Positions 61,764-63,643 of a stretch of 64,000 nucleotides of DNA are shown piece by piece. The notes under the pieces were generated by a model. That model was not told the DNA's origin, made no database searches, and saw nothing but the letters and a program-made list of their open reading frames with translations. Position 1 is the stretch's first letter; every line of letters begins with the position of its first letter. The stretch is from Escherichia coli (lineage in GTDB: Bacteria; Pseudomonadota; Gammaproteobacteria; Enterobacterales; Enterobacteriaceae): the NCBI RefSeq assembly GCF_050920415.1, contig NZ_CP169309.1; one strand, written 5' to 3'. Both the position numbers and the translations under genes were made by a program.

Positions 61764-63158
61764 TTAATCGTGAGCGCCGATTTCGCGCAGTTTACGACCT
61801 TTCATCAGATTACGTTCAATATGTTCCAGCGAAACGTGTTTGGTTTCCGGTACCAGCCACAATGTCAGCAGGATAAACAGTACGTTCAGAGCCGCATACA
61901 CCCAGAAGGTGTTGGCGTTACCCAGCGTGTTGAGCATGGTCAGGAACGTTGCGCCAACGATCATGTTGGCAATCCAGTTGGTGGCGGTGGAGCAGGTGAT
62001 GCCAAAATCGCGGCCTTTCAGCGGCTGAATTTCGGAGCACAGTACCCAAATCAGCGGACCGGCACTCATGGCAAAGCCGACAATAAACATCAGCAGCATG
62101 GCGATAGCGAAATACTGCGCCGACGGAGAGTGGATACCGATATGCATCATTGTACCGAGTATGCCCATGCCAGCAGCCATCACCAGGAAGCCCAGCGTTA
62201 GCGTTGGTTTACGTCCCCAGCGGTCAACAAGGCCGATTGCGATAAAGGTGGCGAGTACGTTGGTGAGACCGACGATCACTGTCCCCCACATTTGCTCGGT
62301 GGTGTTGGTATAACCCGCCAGTTCGAAGATTTTCGGCGCGTAATACATGATGACGTTCATCCCGGTGAATTGCTGCATTACCTGCAACAGTACGCCAAGG
62401 AACACCGCGCGGCGGAAGTTGCTGTTCTCTTTAAACAGCGCCCAGCCACTCTGTTTAACCTGCAAACTTTCACGGATTTCATCCAGTTCGCGTTTCGCTT
62501 CCGCACTGGTGTCGCGCAGGCGCAGCAGCACGCGCTCGGCATCAACAAAACGGCGTTTGGCGGCAAACCAACGTGGGCTGTCTGGCAGGAAGAAAACACC
62601 AATCAGCAGCAGAATTGCCGGGATGATAATCACACCCAGCATCCAGCGCCATGCACCAGTGTAGCTAAAGGCGGTATCAGAAAGATAAGCACCGAGGATC
62701 CCGATAGTGATCATCAACTGATACATCGAGATCATACTGCCGCGAATTTTTTCCGGCGCAATTTCAGAGAGGTAAAGCGGTGCGGTATAAGAGGCCACAC
62801 CCACCGCCAGCCCCAGCAGAACGCGGGAAAGAATCAGTACTTCAACGTTTGGCGCAGCCGCAGAGAACAGTGAACCAGCAACAAACAGAATTGCGCCGAT
62901 CATCAGGCTCTTTTTGCGCCCGAGTTTAAAGGAGAGCCAGCCGCTACCCACCGCACCGACTGCCGCACCGAACATCATGGAGCTTACGACCCATTCTTGC
63001 GTGTGCGAAGTAATCTGGAATTCATCAGCAATAAACGGCAGTGCGCCAGCAATTACACCGATATCCAGGCCAAAGAGTAATCCCGCCAGAGCGGCAAGGA
63101 AGCAGACGAAAAACGTCATTGCCTTGTTTGACCGCCCCTGTTTTTTAGCGTCAGGCAT
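61764..63158 (-). CDS. galP: Galactose:H+ symporter (MFS sugar porter)
   Basis: Start at [30 protein letters not shown], 464 aa. Sugar-porter motifs ([12 protein letters not shown]). Confidence 0.95.
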
Positions 63159-63221
63159 GATGCCCTCCAATATGGTTATTTTTTATTGTGAATTAAGATA
63201 GGTGAGTACGACGTAAAAAGA

Positions 63222-63237
63222 TGTGAAGCAAATCACA
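63222..63237. promoter_or_regulatory. CRP binding site in the galP promoter
   Basis: TGTGA-AGCAAA-TCACA, a perfect match to the CRP core consensus TGTGA-N6-TCACA, upstream of galP. Confidence 0.6.
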
Positions 63238-63240
63238 TCA

Positions 63241-63256
63241 GTGTAATCGCTTACAC
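63241..63256. promoter_or_regulatory. GalR/GalS operator in the galP promoter
   Basis: GTGTAATCGCTTACAC, a 16 bp dyad matching the gal operator consensus GTGnAAnCGnTTnCAC, immediately next to the CRP site. Confidence 0.6.
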
Positions 63257-63504
63257 TAACATTTATCTTAGTTATGATTTAAGTGCATGAAAATAATTGA
63301 GTTATATCATCATAGATTAAACGCAGTTATCTGCAATTAAGACTTTACTGAAAAGAAATGTAACAGCTGTGAAAACTGAATAATAATATGAAAATATTAC
63401 AAATATTTGGCTGGTGTGGTGGGTGTAATCGGTTTCAGTCGTGGTGATGATTTGAGGGTAAAACGTGTTCAGGAAGAATGATGTTATTGTGCAGGCGGTT
63501 TTTT

Positions 63505-63583
63505 TTGCCGGATGCGGCGTGAACGCCTTATCCACTTACATGTGACAGCGGTTGTGGGCCTGATAAGCGTAGCGCATCAGGCA
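63505..63583. repeat. REP/BIME palindromic units between galP and metK
   Basis: GCCGGATGCGGCGTGAACGCCTTATCC and GGGCCTGATAAGCGTAGCGCATCAGGC. Confidence 0.8.
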
Positions 63584-63598
63584 TTTCTCTGGAAAAGA

Positions 63599-63622
63599 AA
63601 AAGGCCAGCGCGAGGCTGGCCT
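63599..63622 (-). terminator. metK terminator hairpin
   Basis: AAAGGCCAGC-GCGAG-GCTGGCCTTT just downstream of the metK stop on the minus strand. Confidence 0.6.
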
Positions 63623-63643
63623 TTGAAAGCAGGTGAAGAAAGA

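Follow-up and report, generated by a model that had tools for sequence, protein, structure and literature searches.

The stretch of DNA directly upstream of galP, the gene for the galactose:H+ symporter, raises the question of how an activator site and a repressor site that lie 3 bp apart can govern one promoter together, and whether this arrangement, as read from the bare letters, is what really controls the gene. GalP is a low-affinity galactose/glucose permease that is relevant to the engineering of PTS-minus E. coli strains, and the galP promoter of K-12 has reportedly been treated by Weickert and Adhya in 1993, by Semsey et al. in 2007 and by El Qaidi et al. in 2009. The window (i.e. the whole stretch of 64,000 nucleotides that was analysed) belongs to an E. 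coli strain other than K-12. An earlier note, made from its sequence, had described a perfect CRP core followed 3 bp later by a gal operator dyad, had taken this arrangement to fit the dual control of galP, and had proposed it as an internal check on motif reading.

The CRP site and the proximal gal operator

The galP coding sequence occupies 61764..63158 on the minus strand, with its ATG at 63158, and encodes 464 aa (RefSeq annotation under the match); the protein is 100% identical to that of the E. coli representative genome. The mechanical ORF list opens galP at a TTG at 63170, while annotation and conservation both point to the ATG at 63158 as the start. On the minus strand the order is metK (from 63644), a terminator (63624-63600), a 485-bp spacer and galP; the terminator directly follows the metK stop codon and forms the upstream limit of the galP regulatory region. 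Because galP is on the minus strand, the order of the elements in gene orientation is operator, 3 bp, CRP site and core promoter, and the operator-CRP tandem lies 64-98 bp upstream of the galP ATG. The features concerned are the following.

63600..63624, minus strand: intrinsic terminator of metK, with a 10-bp stem, 6 G-C pairs and a T-run (terminator scan)
63241..63256, minus strand: promoter-proximal GalR/GalS operator, sense GTGTAAGCGATTACAC, centre 63248.5, named OI(galP) in Qian 2016
63238..63240, minus strand: linker of 3 bp between operator and CRP core (tca on the plus strand), invariant in length and free in sequence
63222..63237, minus strand: cAMP-CRP core, sense TGTGATTTGCTTCACA, within a full 22-bp site at 63219-63240 with its centre at 63229.5
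63164-63168: Shine-Dalgarno sequence of galP, GGAGG

On the plus strand, 63222-63237 reads TGTGAagcaaaTCACA, i.e. TGTGA-agcaaa-TCACA, and the perfect core TGTGA-N6-TCACA claimed for these positions was borne out at 10 of the 10 core positions; over its full 22 bp the site agrees with the consensus AAATGTGATCTAGATCACATTT at 15 positions. The claim of a 16 bp gal operator dyad at 3 bp from the CRP core likewise holds to the base. The plus strand at 63241-63256 is GTGTAATCGCTTACAC, which has no mismatch to the 16-bp hyphenated dyad GTGNAANC.GNTTNCAC and, as a perfect gal operator, is unique in the 64 kb, while its halves GTGTAATC and GTGTAAGC match at 7 of 8 positions (a near-perfect dyad). Operator positions 3, 5, 9 and 15 are genetically critical (PMC5110547), and the corresponding G3, A5, G9 and A15 are all present in the sense operator.

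Both sites coincide with published ones. Qian et al. 2016 (PMC5110547) place the galP operator of MG1655 at 3088186-3088201, which is 83-98 bp upstream of the ATG (3088284), and the operator in the window equals it in sequence as well as in distance to the ATG. In that same study no other place in the genome gave a GalR ChIP-chip peak as high as that at galP (score 115.4), for which GTGTAATCGCTTACA was the inferred site, and according to PMC3119520 GalS shares its operators with GalR. For CRP, the 16-mer in the window is identical to the site given for the galP ChIP-seq peak in ETEC H10407 (Haycocks et al. 2015, PMC4287617), and galP is also found among the CRP genomic-SELEX targets (PMC3105977). 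The comparison with the K-12 promoter that the earlier note had called for thus came out in its favour: the 190 bp before the ATG align with MG1655 b2943 at 100% identity, and the operator is at its published place. It is the same locus, with the differences from K-12 confined to the distal spacer, where the alignment counts ~20 substitutions, none of which affects a known site. The K-12 RefSeq record carries no binding-site features at galP.

The distal part of the spacer also contains a ~60-bp REP-like insert (…GCCTGATGCGCTACGCTTATCAGGCC…) at about 63532-63592, after the metK terminator, which MG1655 does not have and which leaves the known sites intact. An Rfam scan of the metK-galP spacer gave sub-threshold matches only, all of them inside or partly inside the region of the REP and the metK terminator and none in the promoter; one of these is a weak match to naRNA4 at 63510-63533, beside the insert, in a REP copy that is common to K-12.

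Position-weight-matrix scans, the other check put forward in the earlier note, agree with this reading. With a CRP matrix built from 106 ChIP-seq sites of PMC4287617 (galP omitted), the galP site scored 16.5 bits, against a median of 13.0 for the training sites, and ranked second in the window; with a GalR matrix built from 18 ChIP-chip sites of PMC5110547 (galP again omitted), the two galP operators, i.e. the proximal one and a distal one treated below, were the top two matches in the window (16.8 and 15.9 bits). The highest-scoring CRP match of the window lies elsewhere, at 46144-46159 (TGTGATGTGGATAACA), and is identical to the nupG ChIP-seq site of PMC4287617, which indicates that the window also holds the nupG promoter.

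Taken singly, neither score is exceptional. The best CRP match per shuffled window averaged 13.9 +/- 1.8 (highest 19.6) and the best GalR match 14.4 +/- 2.0 (highest 20.5), which leaves the score of either single site inside the shuffled range. The motif TGTGA-N6-TCACA occurs once in the 64-kb window, with 0.09 copies expected and at least one copy in 9 of 100 shuffles. The operator pattern GTGNAANCGNTTNCAC with at most 1 mismatch is found twice, both times upstream of galP in the metK-galP intergenic region (0.22 expected; two copies were reached in 2 of 100 shuffles), whereas at most 2 mismatches give 4 matches against 3.1 expected in the window; since there is no enrichment at this level, such loose matches are uninformative. 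It is the combination that stands out: the joint 35-bp pattern is unique in the window and was matched in none of the 100 shuffles, even with 3 mismatches allowed. Therefore, the significance of the sites rests on the tandem and its position and not on either site by itself.

Conservation of the tandem in Enterobacteriaceae

A scan with the GalP protein against one genome per species yielded 80 loci with an orthologue (90-100% identity), which represent more than 30 genera of Enterobacteriaceae. The tandem was counted in the 80 sequences that extend upstream for 310 bp or more, i.e. 79 loci and the window itself, and was scored as present when an operator with at most 2 mismatches was accompanied by a CRP core with at most 2 mismatches that started exactly 19 bp after the operator start. 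By this measure it is kept in 75 of the 80 sequences, or 74 of the 79 galP loci. The operator-to-CRP offset is 19 bp in all 74 tandem loci, while the linker is made up of 18 different triplets. As the set contains 65 distinct 35-mers in addition to these 18 triplets, the conservation goes beyond mere sequence identity. Expressed as the frequency of the commonest base per position, it is distributed over the region as follows.

Proximal operator, specified positions: 0.98
Half-sites of the CRP core: 0.94
Distal operator, specified positions: 0.92
CRP spacer: 0.55
Linker: 0.55
Remaining spacer (background): 0.46

Within the CRP core, the half-sites are thus 94% conserved across the 74 loci compared to 55% for the N6 that separates them.

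These figures bear on the possibility that the two motifs ended up side by side by chance and are without function. It is true that operator matches with up to 2 mismatches occur at chance frequency and that the single matrix scores are unremarkable next to those of the shuffles. The joint pattern, however, is absent from all shuffles, the spacing is fixed in 74 of the 79 loci, a set that spans more than 30 genera, amid surroundings that are 46% conserved, and occupancy has been published on the basis of ChIP data for both GalR (PMC5110547) and CRP (PMC4287617). Conservation and published occupancy together refute a chance adjacency, to which practically no weight is left.

The tandem is absent in five of the 79 loci, which means that galP can function without this arrangement. 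In two of them (L049 and L059, Enterobacter sp. ENT03 and kpr-6) the CRP site is missing (~110 bp upstream of galP), a consensus TTGACA stands just upstream of the gal operator, and this operator lies 77-78 bp before the ATG compared to about 100 bp elsewhere; such a layout suggests a promoter variant that works independently of CRP and has the operator inside its core. In the other three (L051, L055 and L060, from Leclercia and Silvania) the metK-galP spacer is short and rearranged and has no proximal operator/CRP tandem; these loci have one operator ~138 bp before the ATG and keep a remnant of the TTTCGG...CTCT block.

Further elements of the galP promoter region

Dual control by CRP and GalR/GalS, as the earlier note had it, is well supported but incomplete, the region also containing a distal operator and a NagC operator.

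63423..63438, minus strand: distal GalR/GalS operator, sense CTGAAACCGATTACAC, 1 mismatch, named OE(galP) in Qian 2016
63195..63200, minus strand: putative -10 hexamer TATCTT, 21 nt after the CRP core
63175..63197, minus strand: NagC operator, sense CTTAATTCACAATAAAAAATAAC, overlapping the -10 hexamer and the inferred start site

The distal operator lies 182 bp upstream of the proximal one. It matches an operator that Qian et al. 2016 (PMC5110547) give for MG1655 at 3088004-3088019, 265-280 bp upstream of the ATG, with the same distance to the ATG, and is unchanged relative to K-12 although its flanks differ at many positions. It is present in all 74 aligned loci, in 71 of which it is 181-185 bp away from the proximal operator. 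Judging by its sequence, 63423-63438 would be an available partner for cooperative binding or looping. The NagC operator is identical to the published galP site, the 23-mer cttaattcacaataaaaaataac (PMC3098098), with a mean conservation of 0.78; a single NagC operator is described at galP (PMC5401889), and NagC control of this gene has a further source in PMC4288165.

The T, A and final T of the putative -10 (TAnnnT) are invariant across the 74 loci. In the K-12 galE promoter the order is the operator OE (GTGTAAACGATTCCAC), taa, the CRP 16-mer TTTATtccatgTCACA, 21 nt and the P1 -10 TATGGT, with OE at -60.5 and CRP at -41.5 (PMC4693257). The conserved -10 and the analogy to galE P1, which has the same 21-nt spacing, are the reason for the numbering used here, according to which the galP start site would be at 63188 +/- 1, with a leader of about 30 nt. 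The CRP site would then be centred at about -41.5 (+/- 1), as at a class II promoter, with the proximal operator at -60.5, the distal operator at -242.5 and the NagC operator from about -9 to +14. A sigma-70 scan gave no consensus promoter on the galP strand and two weak calls on the opposite strand. Absence of a consensus sigma-70 promoter is to be expected, because the CRP site stands in for the -35 element at a class II promoter, and it is not positive evidence.

With the start site placed in this way, another reading of the CRP-like dyad can be judged, namely that it is an RNA hairpin (GATGTGA-tttgct-TCACATC, then TTTTT) working as a weak minus-strand terminator or attenuator. The terminator scan did flag 63239..63220 on the minus strand, but the stem has 7 pairs, only 3 of which are G-C, and the real metK terminator is located 360 bp upstream. 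Moreover, the arms are fixed at TGTGA/TCACA across genera without covariation, CRP occupies the site in vivo (PMC4287617), and the dyad is upstream of the inferred start site, which would put it outside the galP mRNA. The call at 63220-63239 was therefore rejected as an artefact of a CRP palindrome that precedes TTTTT, and a hairpin function is extremely improbable.

One more element of the spacer, positioned between the two operators, shows strong conservation upstream of galP in more than 30 genera.

63336..63365, minus strand: conserved block, sense TGTTACAT-N5/6-TTTCAG-N6-CTKAAW

In the inferred numbering the block is centred close to -156, which is ~5 bp off the midpoint between the operators. 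The block contains the dyad TTTCAG-N6-CTGAAA, of which E. coli has CTTAAT as the second half, and TGTTACAT resembles, as its reverse complement ATGTAACA, a gal operator half-site on the opposite strand. No description of the block was found in the literature examined. A full gal operator was rejected (5 mismatches, no central CG and no conservation of the other half), and so was a second NagC site, galP being stated to have one NagC operator (PMC5401889). Manual reading also argued against a sigma-70 promoter on either strand, in view of the lack of a conserved TAnnnT at the right distance, and by eye there was no convincing match to an IHF, Cra or CRP site. That a further regulator or an architectural protein binds here, at a site not described before, and helps to assemble a GalR/GalS/NagC repression complex on galP, is a doubtful proposal. 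If true, the arrangement would be comparable to that of galE, with its HU site at the loop apex.

Activation and repression at galP and related promoters

The galETK P1 promoter and galP are built alike, from a 16-bp gal operator, a 3-bp linker, a 16-bp CRP core, 21 nt and a -10, and with these element lengths in common they have an equal centre-to-centre distance of 19 bp. In both, GalR acts as the repressor and cAMP-CRP as the activator (PMC4693257; PMC4073488). The differences concern the CRP site, of which the left half is poor in galE (TTTAT) whereas the galP core is perfect, and the partner operator, which is internal in galE (+53.5, 113 bp away) and upstream in galP (182 bp away). Within the first 150 bp of galP, neither a pattern search nor a weight-matrix search gave an operator-like match. 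Furthermore, galE has an HU site at the loop apex (PMC5110547) and a second promoter, P2, which is repressed by CRP, and galE is transcribed without regulators while PgalP is inactive without CRP (PMC4073488); galP, set against the galE module, has a NagC operator. mglB, a promoter of the gal regulon, resembles galP in being controlled by cAMP-CRP and GalR/GalS and in having a gal operator next to a CRP site, but there the sites of repressor and activator overlap in part and the response to cAMP is monotonic (PMC2516365). At galP the 16-bp cores are 3 bp apart and the cAMP response peaks at intermediate levels.

CytR and CRP at deoP2, cdd and similar promoters provide another parallel, in which a LacI-family repressor adjoining CRP cancels CRP-dependent activation, and the core promoter is not blocked. 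CytR, however, sits between two CRP dimers, and its binding needs protein-protein contact with CRP, whereas the operator of galP binds GalR strongly and on its own, next to only one CRP site.

Taking these results together, the 35-bp stretch very probably forms the core of the galP regulatory region, where class II activation by CRP is countered by GalR/GalS. PgalP depends on cAMP-CRP, and GalR binding inhibits the activation mediated by CRP, which has been described as AND logic (PMC4073488); because of this dependence and this inhibition, both cAMP and galactose are needed. In line with a role for the second repressor, deletion of galS alters the cAMP response of galP (PMC2516365). How the repressor could interfere is suggested by galE P1, at which OE-bound GalR is in contact with the alpha C-terminal domain (PMC4693257).

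In the sequence of events that we propose, cAMP-CRP would bind TGTGA-N6-TCACA ~41.5 bp upstream of the start, over the -35 position, and would enable the polymerase to use the promoter. A GalR or GalS dimer would occupy the 16-bp operator at about -60.5, directly next to the 22-bp CRP site. The region around -60.5 is the usual docking place of the alpha C-terminal domain at class II promoters, and a repressor placed there would block CRP-dependent activation. Such local anti-activation at galP would be a mechanism borrowed from galE P1. D-galactose would then release GalR/GalS, and the promoter would fire only with cAMP and galactose both present, i.e. as an AND gate. The distal operator probably strengthens repression, via cooperative binding or via looping as its position suggests, and NagC over the start site would add a further layer of repression.

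Alternatively, repression could proceed mainly through a DNA loop between the distal and proximal operators, which excludes CRP or traps the polymerase, the adjacency to CRP being of minor importance. PMC2516365 describes a loop by which CRP is kept away from the gal promoters, the distal operator keeps its spacing of 181-185 bp in 71 of 74 loci, and there is a conserved block near the midpoint of the would-be loop, like the HU site in galE (PMC5110547). On the other hand, the 19-bp offset is fixed in 74 of 74 loci, whereas the distance between the operators varies by several bp, and galE P1, with the same geometry, is repressed without a loop (PMC4693257). The invariance of the operator-CRP offset, next to an operator-operator distance that varies slightly, together with the geometry of galE P1 favours a stereospecific local effect, and we consider a predominant role for the loop to be rather unlikely. 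The two mechanisms are not mutually exclusive and may act jointly.

The CRP/GalR tandem of galP is already known, and the 35-bp stretch itself contains nothing new. Its main value is therefore one of calibration: both sites, their spacing and the gene that they control were correctly read from the raw sequence, just as was hoped of this tandem as an internal check, which means that motif reading in this window can be trusted. As for galP regulation within the family, the invariant 19-bp spacing, equal to that of galE P1, fits a stereospecific mechanism better than mere proximity of the two sites.
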